Below, one piece after another: positions 2,165 through 62,397 of a stretch of DNA of 64,000 nt. Under the pieces are notes generated by a model. That model made no database searches. It saw only the letters and a program-made list of their open reading frames with translations, and had not been told where the DNA came from. The stretch comes from an uncultured Acidobacteriota bacterium. Its GTDB lineage: Bacteria > Acidobacteriota > Vicinamibacteria > Vicinamibacterales > SCN-69-37. A program made the translations under genes and the position numbers. The stretch lies in assembly GCA_963751445.1 (NCBI GenBank), contig CAVVUL010000011.1:289023-353022 (forward strand), in the 5' to 3' direction. Positions within the stretch are counted from its first letter, which is position 1; each line of letters opens with the position of its first letter.

Positions 2165-4058
2165 CTAGCGCGCGGCAGCCGGCCGGTCGTCCAGCGTTGG
2201 CGCGCCGCGCAGCGGCGCGGCATCCGTCTTGTGCAGATCAAGGACGAGGACCTCGTTGTCGCCGGCCTTGAGCCAGGATGCCGGGCAATACAGCCGCTTC
2301 TGCGGGCCGATGTCCCAGTAACGCCCGAGGTTGTGGCCGTTCACCCAGACGACGCCCTTCCGGTAACCGGTCATGTCGATGAACGTATCGGCGGGCTGAT
2401 CGAGGCGGAAACGGCCGCGGAAGAACTGGCCGGGCTTCGCCGGATCGGTGATGGGGGCGGCCGATCCCGGCTGCCCGGGCTTGAGCGTCGCCACCCACGC
2501 GTCGCTGAGCGGCAGCAGATACACCCGCCAGTTCATGAGGGTCATGCCCGCCAGGGTCACGCGATCCGTGATGCCCTTGCGATCGATGATCTCCTGCGCG
2601 AAGTTGATATGCCCCATGCCCTCGACGAGCACGTCGAGCACCGGCGCCGGATTCGAGGTCGCCGGCAGGTCGATCGCCTTCTCGCCCAGGCGTCGGTCGA
2701 GCGAGCCGATGAACTTGCCGTCGACATAGACCAGCGCGTAGTCATGCACGTCGGTGATGGTCAGCCGCCCGCTCTTGCGGCCGACGAGCGTCGTCCGGTA
2801 CAGCACCAGACCCTGATTCTGTCCGTAGGTTTCGAATGGCCGCGGATGCACGGCGGCGATGGGCGCGGGCAGGCGGTCCCATAGCGAGACATACGGCGCC
2901 ATGGCGAACTCCGGGATCGCGATGGCGGGAATCGGATCGGGCACCGGCGGCAACGACCGTCCTGGCGGGAGGTACGAGGCGATGAGATCACGGAGCGCGG
3001 TGTATTTCGGCGTGGGCCGGCCTTGCTCGTTGATCGGCGAATCGTAGTCGTAGCTGGTCACGTCCGGCTCGTAGCCGCCCTTGCCGCCCGAATTGGCGCC
3101 AGCCGTGAAACCGAAATTGGTGCCGCCGTGCGCGACGTAGAAGTTGAACGACTTCTTGTTGGTCAGCAGGAACGTGACTTCCTTGAGCAGGCCCGGCAGC
3201 CCCGGCGCAGCCCACTGCTCGCCCCAATGCGTGAGCCAGCCGGGATACGTTTCCGACGAGAACACCGGCACGCCGGGCACGATCGATCGCGCCAGCTCCC
3301 AGTGCCGCTCGTTCGATCCGGAGTCGAGTCCGACGGCCGCTCCGGGCAAGCTGCCGGCTTCGAGCATGTAGTTGGTCGGACCGTCGCCGGTGAAAAACGG
3401 CACATCGATGCCGTTCGCCTTCCAGACGTCGCGCAGGCGCGTCATGTAGTTCCGATCGTTCGCATAGCTGCCGTACTCGTTCTCGACCTGCAGCATCAGG
3501 ATCGGCCCGCCCCGAGTCACGAGCAGCGGCTTGACCACCGAGGCGAGCTGCGCCATGTAGCGTTCGGCTGCCTGCATGTAGCGTGGATAGAGGCTGCGCA
3601 CGCGGAGTTCCGGGATCCTTGAGCAGGTACGGCGGCAGGCCGCCGAAGTCCCATTCGGCGCAGACGTACGGGCCCGGCCGCAGCAGCACCCACAGGTCTT
3701 CCTGCTGCGCGGCCTTGATGAACCGCGCCAGATCGCGGTTGCCGGTCGCGAAGTCGAACTTCCCTTCTTCGGACTCGTGGTAGTTCCAGAAGATGTAGGC
3801 CGCAATCGTGTTGCAGCCCATCGCTTTCGCCATCCGGATGCGGTGGGACCGGTACTCCGCCGGAATCCGCGCCGGGTGCATCTCGCAGGAAATGATCTGG
3901 AACGGCGCGCCGTCCAGCACAAAGTCCGTCGGCCCGAGCGCGAACGTGTGGCGTCCCGACGAAGGCCCGGCCGGGGCCTGACTGAACGGCGTGGCCGACG
4001 GCACGGCCGCCAGGGCAAGCACGCAGGTGAGGAGGGCGAGCAGGACTCGTCGAGTCAT
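2165..4058 (-). pseudogene. GH35 beta-galactosidase, one frameshift (or sequencing indel) near 3612-3614
   Basis: N-terminal part in ORF 2988..4223 from MTRRVLLALLTCVLALAAVPS (signal) through ..MHPARIPAEYRSHRIRMAKAMGCNTIAAYIFWNYHE..VCAEWDFGGLPPYLLKDP. C-terminal part in ORF 2165..4018 from ELRVRSLYPRYM..LMLQVENEYGSY.. to the end. The junction is a GGG/CCC run where one extra base breaks LLKDPELRVRS. Confidence 0.85.
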
Positions 4059-4075
4059 GCAGCAGACATTACGAC

Positions 4076-4148
4076 GAAAAGTCGAATCCGGGATTCTTTT
4101 TTCGGCGGGGTCTGGTGGGCGAAAAAAGAATCCCGGATTCGACTTTTC
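4076..4148. repeat. Perfect 29-bp-stem hairpin (copy 1), loop GCGGGGTCTGGTGGG
   Basis: GAAAAGTCGAATCCGGGATTCTTTTTTCG (4076-4104) and its exact reverse complement (4120-4148) flank a 15-nt loop. It is AT-rich relative to its surroundings and lies just upstream of the GH35 start. Confidence 0.9.
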
Positions 4149-4161
4149 TGGCGAGCGCCCG

Positions 4162-4413
4162 CTACGCGACGGTCGCGCCAAACAGGCGGCCGACCAGCGC
4201 CGCGCAGGCCGTGGCCACCGCACCCCAGAACATGACGCGCGCGGCGCCGCGCACCAGCGGCGCGCCGCCGAGGCGTGCCGCCGTCGCCCCCAGGACGCCG
4301 AGCAGCACCGATCGAACTGGCGCTGATGGCCCAGGTCATCTGGCCAACCGGTAGCAGGGACGCCAGCAGGACCGGCAGCCCGGCGCCGGCCGCGAACACC
4401 GCGGCGCTCGCCA
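4162..4413 (-). pseudogene. Truncated, frameshifted duplicate of the 3' end of the VIT-family gene
   Basis: 4149-4413 aligns by eye, at roughly nine positions in ten, with 4487-4750. This includes the stop context CGAGCGCCCGCTACGCGACGG. The fragment encodes ..AAVFAAGAGLPVLLASLLPVGQMTWAISASS, then loses frame through a 1-nt insertion (CACCGATCG versus CACCATCG). Confidence 0.7.
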
Positions 4414-23976: not shown

Positions 23977-24131
23977 GTGTCAGTTCACACGGAGGGCACG
24001 GAGGGACGGAGGCACGGAGAGTTACTTGGGGGGCTCCTGATTGGCGCCAGCTTGTCAGGAGCAGCGGGCTGGCCATTCCCAAATGAACTTTCCGCGCCTC
24101 CGTTACTCCGTGCCTCCGTGCGAACTGACAC
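23977..24131. repeat. Inverted pair of CACGGAGG-octamer arrays flanking a ~68-nt spacer that contains its own 8-bp-stem hairpin
   Basis: The left arm is 23977-24025, GTGTCAGTTCACACGGAGGGCACGGAGGGACGGAGGCACGGAGAGTTAC. The right arm is 24094-24131; its reverse complement reads GTGTCAGTTCGCACGGAGGCACGGAGTAACGGAGGCGC. The inner hairpin is GCTCCTGA..TCAGGAGC. Confidence 0.8.
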
Positions 24132-24137
24132 TCCCGT

Positions 24138-25512
24138 TCACGCGTAGAGCCGCAGGTGGCTGACATCCCCGCCCACGGTGTCGAGCCGAATTCCGGCGAT
24201 CTTCAGCGGCGTGAATCGCTCGAGACGTGCGTAGCCCACCGTCGAGCCTCGGGCCAGTTCCGTGGTGAAGTGCAGGTCCTCTGCGGTGGCCGCCGACAGC
24301 ACCCAACTCGAGATTCGCTGTCCTTGCTCGATGTCCTCTTCCAGCCGCACGATTCCGGCCGTCACCTCGCGACCCGTGCCAAGCCAGATCGTCTTCTGGT
24401 TGCCGCCGGACACGCTGTCCCCCGTGGCATCCCGCATCAGGTCCTCCGCGAACATCGCCCGCCGCCGCTCCGCGAACCCCATCAGCCGCTCGACGTCCGT
24501 CGGATGCAGCACGCCATCTTTGGTGGGCGGCACATTTAGCAGCAGCTTCGCGTTGCGGCCGACCGAATCGGAAGTACAGATTCACCAGCGCCTCGACCGT
24601 CCGCACGCGCCCATCGTCCGCCGGGTGATAGAACCAGCCGGGGCGAATCGACGTGTCGCACTCGGCGGGCCGCCAGACCGAACCGTTCGGATCGCCGTGC
24701 TGCAGCGAATCGATGATGCCGGGCCCGCTCACGCCCGGCACGCGGACGATGTCGGGATTGACCGTGGACCAGTTGGGATCGCCGGCCGAGCCGGTCTCGT
24801 TGCCGCACCAGCGCACGTCCGGCCCGGCGTCCGAGAACATCACCGCGCGCGGCTGCATCCGCCGCACTTCGCCCCACACCCGCGGCCAGTCGTATTCCTG
24901 CTTCTTGCCGTTCGGCCCCTCGCCGTTCGCGCCGTCGAACCACACTTCGTGGATCTCGCCGTAGTTGGTCAGCAACTCCCGAAGCTGGTCGACGTAGAGA
25001 TCGTTGTAGCGCGGCGAGTCGCCGTACAACGGATTGTTGCGGTCCCACGGCGAGAGATACAGGCCCGGCTTCAGGCCCTCGGCGCGGCACGCGTCGACGA
25101 ACTCCTTCACGAGGTCGCCCCGGCCTCCCCGCCATGGGCTCGACGCCACGCTGTGTTTCGTCGTCCGGCTCGGCCACAGGCAGAAGCCGTCGTGGTGCTT
25201 GGCGGTGAGAATCATCGCGCGGAAGCCGGCGGCCTTCGCGGTCCGCGCCCACTCGCGCGCGTCGAGCTTCGCCGGCGCGAAGATCGCGGGATCCTCCTTG
25301 CCGTCGCCCCACTCGCGATCGGTGAACGTGTTGACGCCGAAGTGCAGGAACATGGCCAGCTCGTCGCGCTGCCACTCGAGTTGCGACGGCGTCGGGCGCG
25401 GGCGATCGGCCTGGGCGGGGCTCACCCCCGCAGTCGCGCCCTGCCTGGCGCGCAGAAACGGCGTGCCGGCCAGGGCGGCAGCGCCGGTCACGAGAAAGGT
25501 CCGTCGGTCCAT
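24138..25512 (-). pseudogene. GH29 alpha-L-fucosidase with Tat-type signal, one frameshift near ~24550
   Basis: ORF 24103..25512: MDRRTFLVTGAAALAG.., ..FGVNTFTDREWG..ILTAKHHDGFCLWPS..EVWFDGANGEG.. through ..VNLYFR. ORF 24138..24533 continues with (LL)NVPPTKDGVLHPTDVERL.. and a C-terminal beta-domain. Confidence 0.85.
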
Positions 25513-25558
25513 GGGCCAGAGTATCGCTCAGTCGCACCGACCGGGTATCATCGAAATC

Positions 25559-26086
25559 ATGAAGAAACTGCTGTCGCTCGCCGCCGTCATGCTCGCCATT
25601 TCGGCCACCCTGTTCGCGCAGGCCAAGAAGGAGACGCTCGAAGGCGTCCGGAACTTCACGGTCGTGGACGCCACGATCGGCTGCGCCGGCGCCACCGAAG
25701 TCACGGCCATCCCGGCCATCGCGGCCAAAGGCTACAAGGCCATCGTCAACCTGCGCCTCGAGACCGAGGCGGGCGCCGCCATCCCCGAGTCGCGCGCGGC
25801 CGCCGAGAAGGCCGGCATCAAGTTCATCCACCTGCCGTTCAACGCCACCGCGCCGGACATGGCGGTGGCCGACGCGTTCATCAAGGCCGTGACCGACCCG
25901 GCGAACCAGCCGGTCTTCATCCATTGCGCCAGCGCCAATCGCGCGGCGGCACTCTGGATGACCAAGCGCCTGCTGGTGGACAAGTGGGACGATGCGAAGG
26001 CGCTCGAAGAGGCCAGGTTGATCGGCCTGACCAACGCCGGGCTCGAGAAGTTCGCGATGGATTACGTCGCGGCGCGGCGGAAGTAG
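25559..26086 (+). CDS. Secreted protein-tyrosine/dual-specificity-phosphatase-like protein (CX5R motif)
   Basis: MKKLLSLAAVMLAISATLFAQA signal; an IHCASANRAAALW motif fits HCxxxxxR. The DUF442-like fold is an assignment from memory. Start ATG 25559, within ORF 25034..26086. Confidence 0.6.
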   Translation: MKKLLSLAAVMLAISATLFAQAKKETLEGVRNFTVVDATIGCAGATEVTAIPAIAAKGYKAIVNLRLETEAGAAIPESRAAAEKAGIKFIHLPFNATAPDMAVADAFIKAVTDPANQPVFIHCASANRAAALWMTKRLLVDKWDDAKALEEARLIGLTNAGLEKFAMDYVAARRK

Positions 26087-26089
26087 GGG

Positions 26090-26455
26090 CTACACGCTGG
26101 CGGCGACGGCCGATTCGATGTAGGCCTCTGCGGCGGCCAGGCTGTCGAACACGCGCATCGTCACCCACGCACTCGCGAGCGAGGCGAACAGACGCGCCGT
26201 GCCAAAGGACACGAGATTACTGCGGTCCACGACGATGGCCCGGGGCGCCATGGGGGCGTCGGCGAGGAGCGACCGCCCGTGTTCCGCGAGCTTCTGCAGG
26301 TCGCGCGCACCAAACCTCGGCGTGGCCCCACGGGTGTCGATCACTTCGTGGTATCGCTGGCCTCGCATCTCGCGAACGGCGTCGAGGTGCTGCCGGATAT
26401 CATCGGCCGTGACTTCGCCCTGGACCCTGGTCCAGAGCACACCGAATCGAGTCAT
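26090..26455 (-). CDS. Hypothetical 121-aa protein (possibly STAS/SpoIIAA-like fold)
   Basis: Intact ORF with balanced, non-shadow composition (MTRFGVLWTRVQGEVTADDIRQHLDAVREMRGQRYHEVIDTRG..). I see no diagnostic motif. Confidence 0.45.
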   Translation of the reverse strand: MTRFGVLWTRVQGEVTADDIRQHLDAVREMRGQRYHEVIDTRGATPRFGARDLQKLAEHGRSLLADAPMAPRAIVVDRSNLVSFGTARLFASLASAWVTMRVFDSLAAAEAYIESAVAASV

Positions 26456-26576
26456 CGAGGCGTCGGACTATTGCCATATGGGCCTGCGACGTCAGTCTAT
26501 CAACAGGTTCCGGCGCCCCCAAGGGGTGCCGGCGGAGCCGAAGGCGGGCTCGTGGCCGTGACGCTGGCGGGGCTGC

Positions 26577-26582
26577 TATAAT
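26577..26582 (+). promoter_or_regulatory. Candidate -10 box (TATAAT) for the tRNA-Leu gene
   Basis: A perfect TATAAT sits 47 nt upstream of the tRNA 5' end in otherwise very GC-rich DNA. I could not see a convincing -35 hexamer. Confidence 0.35.
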
Positions 26583-26628
26583 GCGGGGTTCCTGGTCGTA
26601 GCGGGCGGTCATTCGTCCGGCGTGACGT

Positions 26629-26715
26629 GCGGAAGTGGCGGAATTGGCAGACGCGCAAGCCTCAGGAGCTTGTGGCCGCAAGGTCGTGGAGGTTCGAGTC
26701 CTCTCTTCCGCACCA
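26629..26715 (+). tRNA. tRNA-Leu (anticodon CAG), class II with long variable arm, CCA encoded
   Basis: Folded manually: acceptor GCGGAAG/CTTCCGC, anticodon stem CAAGC/GCTTG with loop CTCAGGA, variable arm TGGCCGCAAGGTCGT, T-arm GGAGG-TTCGAGT-CCTCT, then ACCA. Confidence 0.95.
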
Positions 26716-26727
26716 ATACTGATCCGG

Positions 26728-27134
26728 GGGCGTTGCCCCCGGACCCCCGGCTCGCTCTCTCGCGCGATTCGCCTCTCGGAAAATGCCCTCAGGCAAATCG
26801 CGGCTCGATTCGCGAGGCCTCGCGTCGCGTCGCTCGCTCGGCACGGACGGTTCGGGCGTTGCCCCCGGACCCCCGGCTCGCTCTCTCGCGCGATTCGCCT
26901 CTCGGAAAATGCCCTCAGGCAAATCGCGGCTCGATTCGCGAGGCCTCGCGTCGCGTCGCTCGCTCGGCACGGACGGTTCGGGCGTTGCCCCCGGACCCCC
27001 GGCTCGCTCTCTCGCGCGATTCGCCTCTCGGAAAATGCCCTCAGGCAAATCGCGGCTCGATTCGCGAGGCCTCGCGTCGCGTCGCTCGCTCGGCACGGAC
27101 GGTTCGGGCGTTGCCCCCGGACCCCCGGCTCGCT
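26728..27134. repeat. Tandem repeat: 126-bp unit, three identical copies plus a 26-nt partial fourth
   Basis: The unit string CGTTGCCCCCGGACCCCCGGCTCGCTCTCTCGCGCGATTCGCC... starts at 26731, 26857, 26983 and 27109 (truncated). I found no mismatch between the three full copies. Confidence 0.95.
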
Positions 27135-27667
27135 TGCCCGCCGAAGCGCATCCAGCGCGAAGGCGGGCTCACTCGCGCAACCCGCCTCCCGTCACCAGCG
27201 CCCAGGCAGGTTGCGCTCCGTTCGCGGGGGCGCCCGGCGCTTCGCGCGGCTCGCGGCCGCGGCACCTCCAGCATGACCGTCCCGGACTTGTCGTGGTTAT
27301 GGGGCGGGTTCCAGAGCGCCACGCGGATCTTGACCTCGGCGTGGCCATCGGCCCTCATTTTGGCGGCGAATTCCAAGCCGGGTTCTGTCGTCTTCTTCCC
27401 GCGATCGACGTCACCCTTCAACGACACGCCGTCACAGGTGAACGTCGAAAGCTGGCGATGCTCATCCAGGGTGAACCACTCGCCGTTCCGAAATGACGAC
27501 GGGTCGAGCGCGGGGAATTTCGCGGTCAGGACCATCGGCGACGTGAAGGCCGTGTCACCGACCGGGCCATCTTTGACGCTCTGTTGCGCGTGCTGGGCCG
27601 GTATGACGGCCCCCGTGAGCACCGCACCCAACAGCAGCGACACGCCGATCGCCGACGCATTCAACAT
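27041..27667 (-). CDS. Hypothetical small secreted protein; 3' end uncertain (ORF runs into the 126-bp array)
   Basis: MLNASAIGVSLLLGAVLTGAVIPAQHAQQ is signal-like. It is followed by a ~115-aa balanced domain (..FRNGEWFTLDEHRQLSTFTCDGVSLKGD..HAEVKIRVALWNPPHNHDKSGTVMLEV). After that comes an Arg-rich tail encoded by 27041-27270, which looks non-native. Confidence 0.45.
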   Translation of the reverse strand: MLNASAIGVSLLLGAVLTGAVIPAQHAQQSVKDGPVGDTAFTSPMVLTAKFPALDPSSFRNGEWFTLDEHRQLSTFTCDGVSLKGDVDRGKKTTEPGLEFAAKMRADGHAEVKIRVALWNPPHNHDKSGTVMLEVPRPRAARSAGRPRERSATCLGAGDGRRVARVSPPSRWMRFGGQASRGSGGNARTVRAERATRREASRIEPRFA

Positions 27668-27695
27668 GTCGCCCCCTCGCTGCTCGCGCCAGCCG

Positions 27696-28121
27696 TCACT
27701 TGCCAGAACCGCCCAACAGGTTCACGTCTCCTAAATCCGCGCCCGTGTAATACGAGATCGCCAGAAGGCCGACCGCCATGCCGACGAGCGCGAGTACGGC
27801 CAAGGTCTTCGTGCCCCACCCAACCGAGTTCCGCCGGGGTGGCTGCGCGGACACTGCGCGCGCCCCGCGGGCCGCCGCCGTGCTCTGACGAAGCAGATCG
27901 CCGCGAGGCGGTTCCTTCGTCACAGGCACCGGGGCGCTACCGTCCCGCGGCCCCTGGACGAGCTTGGCAAACGCGACGGGACTGAGAAGGGCCGGGCGGG
28001 TGGGTTGGTCACGAGGCGGAGCGGCCTCGGGTGACTGCGCCGCCGCGGTGGGCGCGGCGAATAGGGTGAAGGCGACCGATAACGCCGCGAGTCGCCGCAG
28101 GGGCCCGAAAATGCGTGCCAT
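27696..28121 (-). CDS. Hypothetical protein with N-terminal signal and C-terminal TM anchor
   Basis: MARIFGPLRRLAALSVAFTLFAAPTAAAQS.., then a Pro/Arg-rich middle and TLAVLALVGMAVGLLAISYY near the C-terminus. No recognisable domain. Confidence 0.45.
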   Translation of the reverse strand: MARIFGPLRRLAALSVAFTLFAAPTAAAQSPEAAPPRDQPTRPALLSPVAFAKLVQGPRDGSAPVPVTKEPPRGDLLRQSTAAARGARAVSAQPPRRNSVGWGTKTLAVLALVGMAVGLLAISYYTGADLGDVNLLGGSGK

Positions 28122-28355
28122 AGTGACCTCCGCTGTCTAATGCGACAGGTCGGACACCTGCGGCTCAGGGCGACCCGCCGTCGCCAGCGCTACTTCCCCC
28201 CACCAGCGTCTTCGCGATACCTGGCCACGTCCGACGCCCCAGCGCACCTGATCCGCCCGCCTCGATGGAGTGACGATCGGGCACGGAACCACGACTTTGA
28301 TGCCACCCGATGGCTGATCCGGGCGCATAATGCGCCATCGCCTGAAGGAGGCCTC

Positions 28356-30527
28356 ATGCGGCGTTCCGTGCTTCGTCTGTCGTTGGTGATCGCGGTGCTC
28401 TTCGGCGTCTCTGTTCAGACACAGGTCGCCCCCCCTCAGGGCCAGAGTGCCGCTGCCAGCCTGTTCGTGGGGCGCTGGCAAATCGACATCCGGCCACCGG
28501 CGGGTCAGACCGGGGGCCTCCAGGTCATTCCGTTCTGCATCGTGGAAATCAGCGGCGGGCCCGCCCTGTCGGCCAAGATCATCGCGGCCATGGCCGGCGC
28601 GCCGGCGGACGCCGTGACCGTCGCGAGCATCGCGGTCAAAGACGACCAACTGACCCTGGCGCTCTCCTTCATGGGCCGGCAGACGATCACGTTCATCGGC
28701 AAGCGGGCGGGCGATCACCTCGAAGGCACGGCCGCGGCCGACACCGACCCGACGCCGGCGTCGTGGACGGGCACGGCGACGACGACAGACAAGATGCCCT
28801 CGGCCGGCGAAACCGTGGCAGCCGCACAGGCCGCGCAACCGGCAGACCAGAAGGCGTACACCGCGGCCGTCGGCAAGCCGTCAGCCGCAGACCGCGCCGC
28901 GGCGTTCAAGCAGTTCCTGACGGATTTCCCGGACTCGACGTTGAAGGAACAGGCCACGATGCAGTTGGCGCAGAGCCTGCCGACGCCCGCCGAGAAGGCC
29001 GCCGCGCTGAACGCGTTCCTCAAGGACTTCCCCACCTCGCGGCTCCGCGAGCAGGCGGAGTACCAGCTCACGGCGACCCGCACGAATGCCGCCGAGCGAC
29101 AGCAGGCCGAAGACGCGTTCCTCACAGACCATCCGAAGAGCCCGTACGCCAGCACCATCTACGGCCGCCGGTTCGACACGTTGGTGAACCAGAAGCCGGC
29201 GGACACGGCCAAGCTCACCTCGGTGATCGACGGCATGATCGCGGCCAGCCCGGCCTCGGGGGCGGGACGCGCCGCCACGATGAATACGATCGCGGATCGC
29301 CTGATGGCGAAAGATCTGCTGCTGGATCGAGCGCTCGACGCGATCCAGCAGGGCCTGGCCGCCGCCGGCGACAAGACGCCGCCCGCCAGCCTCGCGATCT
29401 ACACGACGACGCTCGGCCAGGTGCTCTTCAAGCTGAAGCGCTACGACGAGGCGGGTGACGCGCTCAAGAAGGCCCTGACGCTGGCAGGCGGGGACGGCGA
29501 CGGCGAACTGCATCTGTTCCTCGGCAAATACTACGAAGTGAAGAACGACGAAACGGCCGCGCTCGACGCGTATCTCAAGGCCTATCAGATGGGCTCGCCG
29601 TACGACACGAAAGCGCTGCTCGACCGCCTCTACACCAAGAAGTACGGCAGCACCGCGAGCCTCGAGGCCAAGCTCGATGAGATCTATCGCGCCAAACCCA
29701 AGGCGTTCGATCCCGGTCACTTCGCGCGCACGCCGCCGCCGGCCGCCGGCACGCCCGCACGCACGGTCCTCGCCGAACTGTTCACCGGCGCCGAGTGCGC
29801 GCCGTGCGTCGCGGCGGACCTGGCGTTCGACGGCTTCAGCGAGCGGTACGAACCGGGCGCCGTCGCCGTGCTCGTGTATCACTTGCACATTCCCGGCCCG
29901 GATCCGATGACCAATGCGGACACGGAGGCGCGCGGGAAGTACTACGGCGTCAACGGCACGCCGACCACGGTGATTGACGGCGCCGCGCTCTCGTCGGGCG
30001 GCGGGTCAGCGTCCGCCGCGGGCGCCCGCTTCAAGGAATACACGGGCAAGATCGAGAGCCGCTTCGACACGAAGCCGCTCGCGGTGTTGTCGGGCTTTTC
30101 GTCCAAGGTGAATGGCCGGAAGATCGCCATCACCGGCGAGGCGTCGCTCACCGCCGATGCCGCCGACCGCGCCGGCCACGCCACGCTGCACGTGGCGCTT
30201 GTCGAGGACTCCGTGCGCTACGTCGGGTCCAACGGCATTCGCTTCCACAACTTCGTCGTCCGCAAGCTGGTCGGGTCATCCCAGGGCGTCGTCCTGGAGG
30301 CCGGCAAGAAGGTCTCGGTGTCCGAGACGGTCGACACGGCCGCCCTGGCCAGGAGCCTCGATGGGTATCTGACGTCGTTCGAGGAGAAGCAAAGCAAGTC
30401 GGTGCGCGGCCCGTTCACGTTCAAGGACCGCGTCACCGGCGTGCAGGCCGGCACGTTGCTCGTCATCGCCTTCGTGCAGGACGATCGGACGAAGGAGATC
30501 CTGCAGGCGGCGATCGTCGTGAAGTAG
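28356..30527 (+). CDS. Secreted TPR-like repeat protein with C-terminal thioredoxin-like CxxC domain
   Basis: An RBS GAAGGAGG lies 5 nt before ATG 28356. Signal MRRSVLRLSLVIAVLFGVSVQTQ. Repeated FLxDFPxS..xxQA helical motifs (FKQFLTDFPDSTLKEQA, LNAFLKDFPTSRLREQA, EDAFLTDHPKSPYAS) and TPR-like helices follow. The C-terminal LAELFTGAECAPCVAADLAF.. is reminiscent of DUF1223/thioredoxin-like proteins (from memory). Confidence 0.7.
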   Translation: MRRSVLRLSLVIAVLFGVSVQTQVAPPQGQSAAASLFVGRWQIDIRPPAGQTGGLQVIPFCIVEISGGPALSAKIIAAMAGAPADAVTVASIAVKDDQLTLALSFMGRQTITFIGKRAGDHLEGTAAADTDPTPASWTGTATTTDKMPSAGETVAAAQAAQPADQKAYTAAVGKPSAADRAAAFKQFLTDFPDSTLKEQATMQLAQSLPTPAEKAAALNAFLKDFPTSRLREQAEYQLTATRTNAAERQQAEDAFLTDHPKSPYASTIYGRRFDTLVNQKPADTAKLTSVIDGMIAASPASGAGRAATMNTIADRLMAKDLLLDRALDAIQQGLAAAGDKTPPASLAIYTTTLGQVLFKLKRYDEAGDALKKALTLAGGDGDGELHLFLGKYYEVKNDETAALDAYLKAYQMGSPYDTKALLDRLYTKKYGSTASLEAKLDEIYRAKPKAFDPGHFARTPPPAAGTPARTVLAELFTGAECAPCVAADLAFDGFSERYEPGAVAVLVYHLHIPGPDPMTNADTEARGKYYGVNGTPTTVIDGAALSSGGGSASAAGARFKEYTGKIESRFDTKPLAVLSGFSSKVNGRKIAITGEASLTADAADRAGHATLHVALVEDSVRYVGSNGIRFHNFVVRKLVGSSQGVVLEAGKKVSVSETVDTAALARSLDGYLTSFEEKQSKSVRGPFTFKDRVTGVQAGTLLVIAFVQDDRTKEILQAAIVVK

Positions 30528-36580: not shown

Positions 36581-36586
36581 TGTACC

Positions 36587-36636
36587 AGTCGTTACCTGTC
36601 GTTACCTGTCGTCACCCGTCGTGACCTGTCCTTACG
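36587..36636. repeat. Five tandem decamers GTCGTTACCT/GTCGTCACCC abutting the radical-SAM stop codon
   Basis: CAGTCGTTACCTGTCGTTACCTGTCGTCACCCGTCGTGACCTGTCCTTACG, read directly. Confidence 0.8.
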
Positions 36637-39932: not shown

Positions 39933-40012
39933 CGGGTGACGGGTGACGGGTAACGACGGGTAACGACAGGTAACGACGGGTAACGACAGGGAACGACAGG
40001 GAACGACGGGCG
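39933..40012. repeat. Decamer array (GGTAACGACG/GGTAACGACA units), left arm of an inverted pair around the dapA-like/udk divergent region
   Basis: GGGTGACGGGTGACGGGTAACGACGGGTAACGACAGGTAACGACGGGTAACGACAGGGAACGACAGGGAACGACGGGCG. Confidence 0.8.
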
Positions 40013-40140
40013 AAAAGAACGAACTGACGCTCGGCAACATTCATTTGTATTAGTTGTGTAAGTGTTGAGCAAACGCTCAGGGAAGACTCGCAGTGGGACA
40101 ATAGGCCTCATGATTCCCGCCCCCCTCGTCACGTGGCGCA

Positions 40141-40198
40141 CCCGCCGTCACCAGTCGTTACGCGTCGTCACCCGTCGTCACCTGTCGTCACCCGTCGT
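40141..40198. repeat. Decamer array (GTCGTCACCC/GTCGTTACGC units), right arm; ends 1 nt before the udk ATG
   Basis: CCCGCCGTCACCAGTCGTTACGCGTCGTCACCCGTCGTCACCTGTCGTCACCCGTCGT, complementary in sense to 39933-40012. Confidence 0.8.
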
Positions 40199-40819: not shown

Positions 40820-40968
40820 AACGACGACCGGGAACGATCGGGAACGACGGGAACGACGGGAACGAACGAGAACTGGGGAACTGGGGAACTACGGCACGCG
40901 GGCTGCCGCTCTTCAGTTCCCGATCGTTTCCGTTCGTTCCCCAGTTCCCGTCGTTCCCGTTCGTTCCC
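40820..40968. repeat. Long imperfect hairpin built from GGGAACGAC / GGGGAACT short tandem units between the convergent udk and MBL-hydrolase stops
   Basis: Left arm ..GGGAACGATCGGGAACGACGGGAACGACGGGAACGAACGAGAACTGGGGAACTGGGGAACTACGG. Right arm TTCAGTTCCCGATCGTTTCCGTTCGTTCCCCAGTTCCCGTCGTTCCCGTTCGTTCCC. Confidence 0.8.
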
Positions 40969-41814
40969 TCAGTCAATCCTCACCACTCCTGGTTTCACCT
41001 GCGCAAACCGCTCGAACACCGTCGGGTCGTGGCCGGGGACGATGCGGTTGAGGCTGCTGGCGAGGATGAGCATGCGGGCCTGCGCGGCGAGGTTCGACGG
41101 CGCATCGAGTGTTTGCGCGATCGCGAGCTTGCGCTCGAGGTTCTCGTACAGGTACGCGTTGTCCGACGCGACCACGACCACCCCGTTGCGCGTGGACACG
41201 CCCACGAACTGCGACGCGAACGTGTGCTTGCCGCCCGTGTAGACGCGCACACCCGGCATGATTTCCTGATTGTCGCCGGCCGCCAGCGTCATCCGGTCCT
41301 CGCCGCGAATCGCGAACAGCATCGCGGCGACATCCGGATCGATCGCCCGGTCGCGCACATTCCCGGCGTCGTCGATGTGATGCGCGTACTCCTCGCGCTG
41401 GATCCAGACGCGCGCGCGCGGGAACAGATCCGCGCCGTCCGCATGGTCCCAGTGAATGTGCGTGATGATGACGTCGGTGACCTGATCGGGCGCGATGCCG
41501 AGCGCGGCCTGAACCGCATCCGACGGCTTCGCGTAGCCGGCCGGCTTCCACTGCTGCAGGAACTTGTCGCGATAGAACCCGGAGTCCACCAGCACCACGC
41601 GGCCGTCCGGCCCGCGCAGCACCCACACCATCATGGCGATGTCGAGCGTGCGCGCCCTGTCGGCGCCCGCCGTGAGCCCCGCGACGAGCGAAGACATGCG
41701 AAAGGCCGGTAGTGTGGCATATCGCACTGCGTACACCTCCCAACGCGGCGCCTGCGTCCCGGCGAGCACGGCCATGGCGACACCCATCCACGCAATCACC
41801 GCTCTTGGACTCAT
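40969..41814 (-). CDS. MBL-fold metallo-hydrolase (lactonase-like), secreted
   Basis: MSPRAVIAWMGVAMAVLAG.. is signal-like. The metal motif ITHIHWDHADG (HxHxDH) is present. 281 aa from the ATG at 41814 within ORF 40969..41937. Confidence 0.8.
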   Translation of the reverse strand: MSPRAVIAWMGVAMAVLAGTQAPRWEVYAVRYATLPAFRMSSLVAGLTAGADRARTLDIAMMVWVLRGPDGRVVLVDSGFYRDKFLQQWKPAGYAKPSDAVQAALGIAPDQVTDVIITHIHWDHADGADLFPRARVWIQREEYAHHIDDAGNVRDRAIDPDVAAMLFAIRGEDRMTLAAGDNQEIMPGVRVYTGGKHTFASQFVGVSTRNGVVVVASDNAYLYENLERKLAIAQTLDAPSNLAAQARMLILASSLNRIVPGHDPTVFERFAQVKPGVVRID

Positions 41815-42923: not shown

Positions 42924-43125
42924 GAGTTCAGGGTTCCGGGGTTCCGAGGTTCACGGTTCGGTTCACGGTTCCGGGTTCAGGCTCAGGTTCGGGTTCGAGG
43001 TTCAGGATGCGTCGGGAGTTCAAGGCTTCGCCGCAGAACCAGCACCGAACCCAGAACCCGAACCTCTGAACCGTGGAACCGGAACCCCGGAACCCCGGAA
43101 CCCTGGAACCTCGTGAACCTCGTGA
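42924..43125. repeat. GGTTCCGG-type heptamer/octamer arrays arranged as a long imperfect inverted repeat
   Basis: Left arm GAGTTCAGGGTTCCGGGGTTCCGAGGTTCACGGTTCGGTTCACGGTTCCGGGTTCAGG... Right arm ..GAACCGTGGAACCGGAACCCCGGAACCCCGGAACCCTGGAACCTCGTGAACCTCGTGA. It lies between the cysK stop (42916-18) and the 3' end of BNR gene A. Confidence 0.85.
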
Positions 43126-46170: not shown

Positions 46171-46352
46171 GCTCCGAGGTTCTGGGGATGTCGGTGAGGT
46201 TCCTGGGTTCCAGGTTCCTTGGTTCCGGGGTTCGCGTCGGTTCTAGGTTCAGGCTTCGCCGTTCCCGGTTCCTAGTTCCAGGTTTCGCGAAGTTCGAACC
46301 CGAACCGTGAACGCCCGAACCCCGGAACCCAGGAACCCGGAACCCCGGAACC
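46171..46352. repeat. GGTTCC-type arrays as an imperfect inverted repeat between the tandem BNR genes
   Basis: Left ..GAGGTTCTGGGG..GAGGTTCCTGGGTTCCAGGTTCCTTGGTTCCGGGGTTCG... Right ..GAACCCGAACCGTGAACGCCCGAACCCCGGAACCCAGGAACCCGGAACCCCGGAACC. It shares the core GTTCAGGCTTCGCCG with the array at 43017-43034. Confidence 0.85.
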
Positions 46353-62125: not shown

Positions 62126-62396
62126 GCGGGTTCCGGGGTTCCGAGGTTCCGAGGTTCCGGGGTTCCGGTTCCAGGGTTCAGGGGTTCGGGTTCGAGGTTC
62201 GGGGTTCGGGGTTCCAGGTTCGGGGTTCGGGGTTCCAGGTTCGGGGTTCCAGGTTCGGGGTTCGGGTTCCAGGTTCGGGTTCGTGATGGCTTGCACCGTG
62301 AACCGTGAACCTCGAACCTGGAACCTCGAACCCGAACCTGGGAACCTCGGAACCGGAACCCCGGAACCTCGGAACCCCGGAACCCCGGAACCTCCG
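62126..62396. repeat. Largest GGTTCCGG/GGTTCGGG array pair (left ~158 nt, right ~99 nt inverted) filling the whole spacer between two minus-strand genes
   Basis: GGGTTCCGGGGTTCCGAGGTTCCGAGGTTCCGGGGTTCCGGTTCCAGGGTTCAGGGGTTCGGG...GTGATGGCTTGCACCGT...GAACCTCGAACCTGGAACCTCGAACCCGAACCTGGGAACCTCGGAACCGGAACCCCGGAACC... Confidence 0.9.
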
Positions 62397-62397
62397 G

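Follow-up and report, generated by a model that had tools for sequence, protein, structure and literature searches.

A probable recent amplification of a conserved tRNA-Leu trailer module in an uncultured Acidobacteriota bacterium

A tRNA-Leu(CAG) gene in a 64,000-nucleotide (nt) stretch of DNA from an uncultured Acidobacteriota bacterium (positions 289,023 to 353,022 of contig CAVVUL010000011.1, assembly GCA_963751445.1; this whole stretch is called the window below) is followed by a perfect tandem array of a 126-nt unit. Our reading, to which we give a probability of about 0.62, is that the array arose by recent tandem amplification, specific to this lineage, of a native structured module that is non-coding and constitutes the trailer on the 3′ side of tRNA-Leu in a clade of soil Vicinamibacterales. 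The array alone is an ordinary young minisatellite; its unit is a new conserved non-coding element outside Rfam. The original prediction, made from the sequence letters and a list of open reading frames (ORFs), described the repeats, and our analysis adds that their unit is a conserved covarying element tied to tRNA-Leu.

The array and its conserved unit

Tandem Repeats Finder (TRF) reports a period of 126 nt over window positions 26728-27134, with 3.2 copies, 100% matches and no indels (score 814). In a base-by-base comparison at an offset of 126, positions 26728 to 27008 match without a break, i.e., periodicity is perfect to 27134, so that the three perfect copies originally described are borne out. 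By the offset comparison and blastn the array comprises 3.23 copies without a mismatch, and its periodicity stops at 27134. A perfectly periodic stretch of 407 nt cannot have arisen by chance. The array had been placed about 13 nt past the encoded CCA, behind a hairpin; the distance from the tRNA-Leu(CAG) gene is indeed 13 nt, but the periodic run begins inside that GC-rich hairpin (hairpin A), at 26728. We prefer to describe the layout as a 29-nt core, GGGCGTTGCCCCCGGACCCCCGGCTCGCT, that occurs four times, with a 97-nt segment in each of the three gaps. No further copy of the unit was found elsewhere in the 64-kb window. The features of the array and of the module within its unit are as follows:

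26728-27134, no strand assigned: perfectly periodic region (TRF, offset-126 comparison, blastn)
26728-26853, 26854-26979 and 26980-27105: identical 126-nt units 1, 2 and 3 (100% identity)
27106-27134: fourth 29-nt core, at the end of the periodic region
26744-26848, plus strand: module copy 1 (covariance model R1, 105.2 bits)
26870-26974, plus strand: module copy 2, same sequence as copy 1 (R1, 105.2 bits)
26996-27100, plus strand: module copy 3, same sequence as copy 1 (R1, 105.2 bits)
27167-27262 (right end approximate), plus strand: old, diverged fourth module (R1 match at 27167-27225 and pairwise alignment)
26751-26755 with 26812-26816, plus strand: helix 1 of copy 1, CTCGC pairing with GCGAG
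26763-26774 with 26791-26802, plus strand: helix 2 of copy 1, with its apical loop at 26775-26790

Related loci were collected by three routes: through the 25-mer at the 3′ end of the tRNA (at least 118 loci, mostly metagenome-assembled genomes of Acidobacteriota), through the junction of tRNA and trailer (L119), and through contigs carrying homologues of the neighbouring fucosidase (L120-L134), whose 80-89% identical homologues are named as Vicinamibacterales, the order to which the source genome belongs. Six other genomes (L022, L119, L123, L126, L131 and L132) carry a homologous module of ~105 nt behind tRNA-Leu, in the equivalent place and orientation, starting right after hairpin A and ACCCC; alignments A3 and A4, with L119, L123, L126 and L131, have 72-75% column identity over ~105 nt. 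In all seven genomes, the window included, the module trails the tRNA on the same strand, after a spacer of 8-9 nt and hairpin A. It is present as a single copy in L119, L123, L126, L131 and L132 and as about two decayed copies in L022, while the window holds three identical modules and one old copy.

Covariance model R1, which was built from five sequences and searched over the window and 131 to 134 loci (~1 Mb), scores 114 bits in L123, 106 in L126, 98 in L131, 64 in L119 and 39 in L022, and it finds the window's fourth module at 46.4 bits (E ~3e-7 to 1e-6, model positions 11-70). L132/L133, which lay outside the training set and were retrieved after R1 had been built, provide an independent test of the model: they score 98.4 bits, with the module 28 nt behind a tRNA-Leu(CAG). 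R1 also matches a solo module in L009 (39 bits), and the remaining matches in the ~1 Mb are a few weak ones (13-25 bits, E 0.005-1).

Less sensitive comparisons did not reveal this family. The 97-nt segment gave no significant simple local alignment with L022, and the homology became clear only by way of L119, L123, L126 and L131 and the covariance model. As exact words, a 25-mer of the unit had no matches in genome contigs and none in metagenome contigs, and the core and the loop had none in viral contigs; such scans demand identity and thus missed the 70-75% identical homologues later found by synteny. The unit had no match in the phage collection, and the plasmid collection returned only a marginal 28-nt match of GC palindromes between hairpin A and Prescottella plasmids (E 9e-3). 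An Rfam 15 cmscan of 25500-28500 with E values up to 10 identified the tRNA alone, the other rows reaching 14-21 bits against gathering scores of 50-80; assignment of the module to a described RNA family was therefore rejected.

The predicted fold of the module is a 5-bp closing helix (helix 1, CUCGC/GCGAG) that encloses an 11-12-bp hairpin (helix 2), whose apical loop opens with a conserved C/U-rich CCUC(C/U). This CCUCC loop start and the stretches CUCACUCGC, GGCUCGNUUCG and GCUCGCUCG are unpaired and conserved. Run on an independent MAFFT alignment, RNAalifold gives hairpin A, the closing helix and the inner hairpin (CGCGAUUCGCC/GGCAAAUCGCG); a third helix of its consensus has no covariation and we do not claim it. 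Over nine distinct sequences the proposed partners can pair in 93.8% of cells; the figure is 81% for shuffles and falls to 18-45% after a shift of the partners by 1-3 columns. Double-sided changes affect 9 of 18 pairs (17 cells), as compared with 3.4 in shuffles and 0-2 after sliding, and none of 500 shuffles reached the observed values for pairing or compensation. Within the module the compensatory changes are confined to helices 1 and 2: the former occurs as CUCGC/GCGAG, CACAC/GUGUG and CACGC/GCGUG, the latter as GAUUCG/CAAAUC, GACUUG/CAAGUC and GGCGCG/CACGUC. Judged by these sequences, the module is a conserved structured non-coding element, supported by covariation in two helices. Two stems per unit had been proposed earlier; the first (CGCGATTCGCC...GGCAAATCGCG), which corresponds to the inner hairpin of the RNAalifold prediction, is conserved with covariation, whereas the second, the palindrome CGCGAGGCCTCGCG (compare CGCGAGGCCUCGCG), is not conserved, and its GCGAG half pairs with the upstream CUCGC in relatives.

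Origin of the array and its surroundings

Two features at the right-hand side of the array bear on its history and on its coding potential:

27136-27168, no strand assigned: hairpin B, GCCCGCCGAAGCGCATCCAGCGCGAAGGCGGGC, a ~35-nt insertion in the fourth module, at the right border of the perfect array
27041-27667, minus strand: convergent orphan ORF of 208 amino acids with a signal-peptide-like N-terminus (ORF list, translation)

When the unit is aligned to 27106-27290, the shared core is followed by a ~35-nt insertion (hairpin B) and then by a module copy that extends to ~27262 and, the shared core left aside, has ~71% identity with the young units. The fourth copy had been described as cut off; perfect periodicity does end at 27134, but an older, diverged module copy resumes past hairpin B, and the perfect array presumably ends where it does because hairpin B breaks the homology of the old copy. 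A diverged fourth module behind a shared core implies that the locus once held two modules. A state with one module and a second core is found in L119 and L131, and two decayed units are found in L022. An older duplication would thus have left two cores flanking one module, as is still the case in L119 and L131, and the proximal module would then have expanded to three copies by unequal homologous recombination or slippage between the 29-nt direct repeats; two such repeats around 97 nt would, from their layout, be a sufficient substrate. The expansion would be recent, since no substitution separates the three copies, and the finding of three identical copies next to a ~71% identical paralogue agrees with the very recent amplification or homogenisation originally proposed.

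In layout the array is a minisatellite, or variable-number tandem repeat (VNTR): it has at least two head-to-tail copies of a unit of at least 10 bp with high identity, and copy number at the homologous locus varies among species-level genomes (1, ~2 or 3+1 copies). As far as amplification is concerned, the earlier suggestion of a satellite or VNTR is therefore sound. The layout of a CRISPR array was not found, as the full 126 nt repeat without a unique spacer, and over the 64-kb window and ~1 Mb of related loci the unit does not have the dispersed pattern of repetitive extragenic palindromes (REP) or bacterial interspersed mosaic elements (BIME), or that of miniature inverted-repeat transposable elements (MITEs). 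Hairpin B, unlike the array unit, is a dispersed repeat: the pattern CCGCCG[AT]AGC...GAAGG[CT]GG occurs 12 times in related loci, both linked and unlinked to tRNAs. Its family (L131 ~291 on the minus strand, L052 1776 and 2369, L053 2340 and 2551, L058 2539, and others) consists of small GC-rich palindromes with GAAG/GAAGG arms, dispersed in a REP-like manner.

Three further explanations of the repeats were weighed. The copy number or the perfect identity might be an artefact of assembly or polishing, the true locus having one or two copies or slightly differing ones. The contig does come from a metagenome-type assembly, tandem copies can be homogenised by consensus polishing, and the fucosidase gene 2 kb away shifts frame relative to all its homologues, as happens with indel errors. 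However, typical long reads exceed the 407-nt array and would span it, an independent older duplicate is present at the locus, relatives also have duplicated cores or units, and the same tRNA is trailed by similar arrays in several unrelated assemblies; an artefact is accordingly very improbable in our view. The idea that the units encode a 42-residue protein repeat, whether in plus-strand ORFs or at the C-terminus of the 208-residue product, deserves hardly any credence and was rejected. The period is divisible by three, five of the six frames are open and the annotated 208-residue product terminates in unit 3, yet none of the unit's six frames shows a codon-position trend in GC content (0.69/0.69/0.74), as compared with 0.64-0.77, 0.46-0.61 and 0.75-0.89 at the three positions in genes of the window. 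The long plus-strand ORFs (26622-27734 and 26635-27276) begin within the tRNA, as originally noted, and relatives differ by indels of 1, 2 and 8 nt that keep the base pairing and not the reading frame. The original judgement that coding is unlikely therefore holds, although its statement that all six frames are open does not: one of the minus-strand frames is closed by a stop once per unit, and it is at this stop that the 208-residue ORF ends. That ORF does end within the array, as had been seen, its stop lying in copy 3. It has gene-like GC by codon position from 27667 to ~27262 and loses it beyond; its last ~70 codons cross the old module, hairpin B and part of unit 3, and this tail merely reads through non-coding DNA to a stop. 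Pfam has no domain for it or for the repeat, the only database match of the ORF is itself, and an exact-sequence look-up of the window's proteins returned no record.

Site-specific recombination offers another origin, in which the 29-nt core would be an attachment site and the repeats a scar of repeated integration and excision or of a collapsed element. The tRNA-Leu 3′ end is much used for integration in this phylum (solo 3′ fragments occur at ~20 of the 118 loci among the matches listed), arrays of units resembling tRNA 3′ halves are found in L002, L013, L045, L053 and L114, and L119 has an IS110-family element precisely at the junction of hairpin A and the module. Gene content 3′ of the tRNA also differs between the window and L122, its clearest syntenic relative (pyruvate:ferredoxin oxidoreductase (PFOR), dihydroorotate (DHO) dehydrogenase, tRNA, fucosidase, GH20), which has a GIY-YIG gene where the window has 4 kb of orphan genes. 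The unit itself, however, contains no tRNA-derived sequence. We considered it as a degenerate tRNA 3′ half, at which CCTCAGG and GGTTCG had hinted, and rejected this candidate: local alignment is at chance (14, with a null of 13.9), and an nhmmer profile of the tRNA-fragment units matches the real T arm only, with E of at least 3 inside the array. The flanking ORFs and the 64-kb window were found to contain neither an integrase nor a second tRNA fragment; by Pfam the 19 flanking ORFs include no recombinase, encoding instead glycosidases, PFOR, tetratricopeptide repeat (TPR) and STAS proteins and similar, in agreement with the earlier remark that an integrase is absent. The 97 nt between cores are a conserved, covarying native module rather than foreign DNA, and neither viral contigs nor phages match, the plasmid match being the marginal one to hairpin A. 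On this evidence the scar of an integrative element, one of the possibilities originally raised, is very improbable.

The flanks of tRNA-Leu genes were also surveyed more broadly, by running TRF on the loci found with the tRNA 3′ 25-mer, oriented on the tRNA (831 kb). Among the matches listed, 6 of 121 (L002, L013, L053, L076, L100 and L114) have a long-period array (at least 50 nt, at least 92% identity) whose start lies between -26 and +54 nt relative to the 3′ end of tRNA-Leu, whereas only two long-period arrays, of 75% and 88% identity, occur elsewhere in the 831 kb; as the loci were picked by a tRNA word and come from the matches listed, this enrichment is indicative and not a genome-wide rate. 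The units in these other flanks are unrelated to the window's and are of two kinds, attachment (att) repeats that resemble tRNA 3′ halves and a trailer element in L100, where a different conserved element has been amplified 3.6-fold (125 nt, 96%) behind tRNA-Leu(CAG). Tandem arrays of three unrelated kinds of unit thus recur at the tRNA-Leu 3′ flank across Acidobacteriota, and together with the solo fragments and the L119 insertion they mark this flank as a rearrangement hot spot in the phylum.

Several observations were made on these flanks in their own right. The arrays of the att type lie behind tRNA-Leu(GAG/CAG/AAG) in L013 (6130-6528), L053 (+54 to +278), L045 (+0 to +440), L114 (1916-2108) and L002 (2232-2333); their units have an anticodon loop CTCAG, a long hairpin, a T arm and sometimes CCA plus a terminator, and in L013 and L045 genes of the island type, e.g., for a Fic-like protein, come next. 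The 25-nt 3′ end of tRNA-Leu occurs without a full gene in L018, L019, L030, L033, L036, L038, L043, L062, L065 and L068, and likewise in L073, L077, L082, L084, L085, L087, L090, L094 and L113, with several such fragments on a single contig (CAWDCH010000016.1, spanning 504-568 kb). Because the solo fragments resemble the far attachment sites of integrated elements, tRNA-Leu appears to be a much-used integration site in Acidobacteriota. The IS110-family transposase element of L119 (~1065-2245, read on the minus strand) is inserted exactly between hairpin A plus ACCCCC and the trailer module, behind a tRNA-Leu whose anticodon loop reads GAG by eye. At its left end this element has the same sequence as the left target flank, GACCCCCTTG; a bridge RNA programmed to target the tRNA trailer could use it as its guide. 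A second, unrelated conserved element, with mutually complementary segments (CCTTCGCTC..GCTACGGCTGGCAAGCC..GAAGGCTGTCCGCCGTAGC..GCGAAGGCGGAC), follows tRNA-Leu(CAG) at +2 to ~+60..+160 in L014, L042, L045, L052, L058, L092, L094, L095, L100, L107 and L110, and is partly duplicated in L076, L092 and L095. Finally, L022 has a convergent ORF for a small secreted protein beside its tRNA-Leu trailer (3799-4400, minus strand) that finds its stop only deep in the repeated trailer and whose read-through yields an Arg/Ser-rich tail, as with the window's ORF; GC-rich trailers may generally distort neighbouring gene calls.

The alpha-L-fucosidase gene mentioned above (24103-25512, minus strand) changes frame at ~24567 relative to its homologues. 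In tblastn (P0003, P0016), residues 1-312 lie in frame -2 and residues 313-459 in frame -3, and all database matches of the ORF cover only ~60-67% of it. The frame change reflects either an assembly indel error or a pseudogene.

The tRNA trailer and its possible roles

The sequence upstream of the array contains the following features:

26577-26582, plus strand: TATAAT box, ~46 nt upstream of the tRNA (read in the sequence)
26629-26715, plus strand: tRNA-Leu(CAG) with encoded CCA (ARAGORN; Rfam RF00005, 54.9 bits)
26716-26723, plus strand: AU-rich spacer ATACTGAT, from the CCA to hairpin A
26724-26742, plus strand: hairpin A, CCGGGGGC-GTT-GCCCCCGG, followed by ACCCCC and no T run

The tRNA-Leu(CAG) gene is the only tRNA gene of the window. 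The TATAAT box is probably the -10 element of its promoter; CTATAAT followed by GTTCCTGGTC is also found upstream of the tRNA in L122, L123, L126 and L131, and a consensus scan gave no full sigma-70 site at the tRNA-Leu locus. The spacer, in which TGATC is unchanged in five aligned relatives (alignment A3), is the sole A/T-rich single-stranded stretch at this place and a plausible endonuclease or processing site (A-UGAUC). Hairpin A and the preceding spacer are kept in L022, L119, L122, L123, L126, L131 and L132, with compensatory changes at two pairs of the hairpin (CG to UA, GC to AU). As the periodic run begins inside hairpin A, the later copies retain only its 3′ arm and a 4-bp remnant. 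There is no hairpin-plus-T-run terminator between the tRNA and the modules and no terminator consensus in 26300-27800; hairpin-plus-U terminators do occur behind the same tRNA in other Acidobacteriota.

Since hairpin A lacks a U tract, transcription from the tRNA promoter would be expected to continue into the module. The tRNA and its trailer would then be parted by cleavage in the AU-rich spacer, AUACUGAU, hairpin A would cap the released RNA, and the structured trailer RNA would persist, with a dose that scales with copy number. This role as a structured trailer RNA of tRNA-Leu is a tentative proposal, to which we give slightly less than an even chance. A structured RNA array co-transcribed with the tRNA had been suggested before; the conserved module, its two covarying helices, its linkage to the tRNA in seven genomes and the missing terminator consensus fit that suggestion, but the pairing carries neither an RNA-versus-DNA nor a strand signal. 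The CCUC(C/U) at the start of the helix 2 loop resembles an anti-Shine-Dalgarno sequence and may serve as a lead. It is doubtful that the module represents an undescribed class of regulatory RNA derived from tRNA trailers, which would be cleaved in the spacer, protected at its 5′ end by hairpin A, paired through its CCUCC-type loop with ribosome-binding sites or other RNAs, and tuned in dose, rapidly and reversibly, by amplification (from one copy to three or four). If such regulation were real, the unrelated amplified trailer of L100 would follow the same principle.

Alternatively, the module may be a mere terminator or insulator that stops transcription from both sides between the tRNA and a convergent gene, its triplication being a neutral minisatellite expansion with no dosage role. 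The intergenic gap is convergent in the window, L022, L123, L126 and L131, the pairing data lack strand bias, copy number varies freely with L122 having no module at all, and a REP-like hairpin has been inserted into the same gap. A plain terminator, however, would have no need of the conserved unpaired stretches (CUCACUCGC, GGCUCGNUUCG, GCUCGCUCG and the CCUCC loop start), and no helix is followed by a T/U tract. Moreover, the module keeps its place by the tRNA, whereas every genome has a different convergent gene (OEP, SpoU, kinase, orphan), and in L119 the downstream gene is co-directional. We regard this alternative as possible, though on balance unlikely.

Several points weigh against the reading of the array as an amplified, structured tRNA-Leu trailer module. 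The syntenic L122 has hairpin A without the module, which is thus dispensable, and the solo module of L009 is not adjacent to the tRNA, lying ~550 nt from it in opposite orientation. Taken singly, the units are no more stably folded than shuffles of their sequence (z from +0.45 to -1.55), which makes the structural support comparative; the z values of the whole array (-2.1 and -3.7) were not used because shuffling destroys the repeats and inflates them. The covariation counts come from a small sample of nine sequences, in an alignment that was fitted to the model and so favours structure. Their non-canonical cells (five U-C, two A-C and one G-U) give no signal for RNA over DNA or for either strand, and an attempt to assign the strand by wobble pairs was uninformative. 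The module lies between convergent genes in 5 of 6 genomes examined (L132 left out), which fits a bidirectional terminator, and hairpin A could itself act as a terminator without U residues, leaving the modules outside the tRNA transcript. Copy number and perfect identity depend on one assembly with a suspected indel elsewhere, and any benefit of three copies would be speculative.

Were the module indeed a trailer RNA, the locus would be a naturally occurring example of a non-coding RNA, linked to a tRNA, whose dose is tuned by copy number, and a large soil phylum that has been little studied would gain a new RNA motif. Even if it were only a terminator-like spacer, the locus would still mark recombination at tRNA flanks and be a possible site for VNTR typing.

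The window contains other repeats, away from the tRNA. Arrays of 5-7 decamers (GGTAACGACG and GGGAACGACG types) form inverted pairs in the intergenic gaps on either side of a uridine-kinase-like gene (39945-40010 with 40139-40198, and 40824-40873 with 40913-40973), and a third array lies at 36583-36635. They could form long imperfect hairpins or be protein-binding arrays, the 10-nt period corresponding to one helical turn. Short-period arrays are found at 62127-62397, 43050-43119 and 46197-46352; among them are 22 copies of CGGGTTC followed by 12 of the near complement GAACCTCG, and arrays of CCGGAACC and GAACCCCG.

Comparison with known systems

The mycobacterial interspersed repetitive unit (MIRU) loci are intergenic minisatellites, or VNTRs, of bacteria. 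Like these, the array consists of head-to-tail, intergenic units in the size range of tens to more than 100 bp, with a copy number that varies between genomes, an expansion ascribed to slippage or unequal recombination, and a flanking ORF that ends in the repeat. It is unlike them in having a conserved, covarying structured unit that goes with one tRNA gene, is single-copy in most relatives and belongs to no dispersed repeat family. Minisatellites of Xanthomonas serve for typing by multiple-locus VNTR analysis (MLVA) (PMC10174486).

With att-site repeats the array shares the arrangement of direct repeats 3′ of a tRNA gene, and L013, L045, L053 and L114 do have arrays of that type. Tyrosine integrases favour sublocations in tRNA genes and leave att repeats of the 3′ end, whereas the window's repeat is free of tRNA sequence, does not enclose foreign DNA and is not accompanied by a recombinase gene.

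Tandem multicopy small-RNA genes, such as LhrC1-4 of Listeria and PrrF1/2 of Pseudomonas, provide a further comparison. They too have near-identical units of ~100 nt arranged head to tail, and the CCUC(C/U) loop start recalls the C/U-rich loops through which LhrC pairs with ribosome-binding sites. The LhrC and PrrF genes each have their own promoter and terminator, in contrast to the array units, inside which no promoter or terminator consensus was found; any RNA made from the array would thus be one polycistronic trailer.

A parallel in position is the 3′ external transcribed spacer (3′ETS) of leuZ in the glyW-cysT-leuZ operon of E. coli, where the trailer of a tRNA-Leu works as a sponge for small RNAs. 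That trailer is short and single-copy and ends in the operon terminator, whereas the module is ~105 nt long, has two conserved helices and is triplicated; the likeness is one of position. The term 3′ETS is treated in reviews (e.g., PMC8166272). Like 3′ETS-leuZ, the module is non-coding and comes immediately after a tRNA-Leu in the same orientation, a canonical terminator being absent from the stretch between them, and by this analogy it could be processed free and act in trans.

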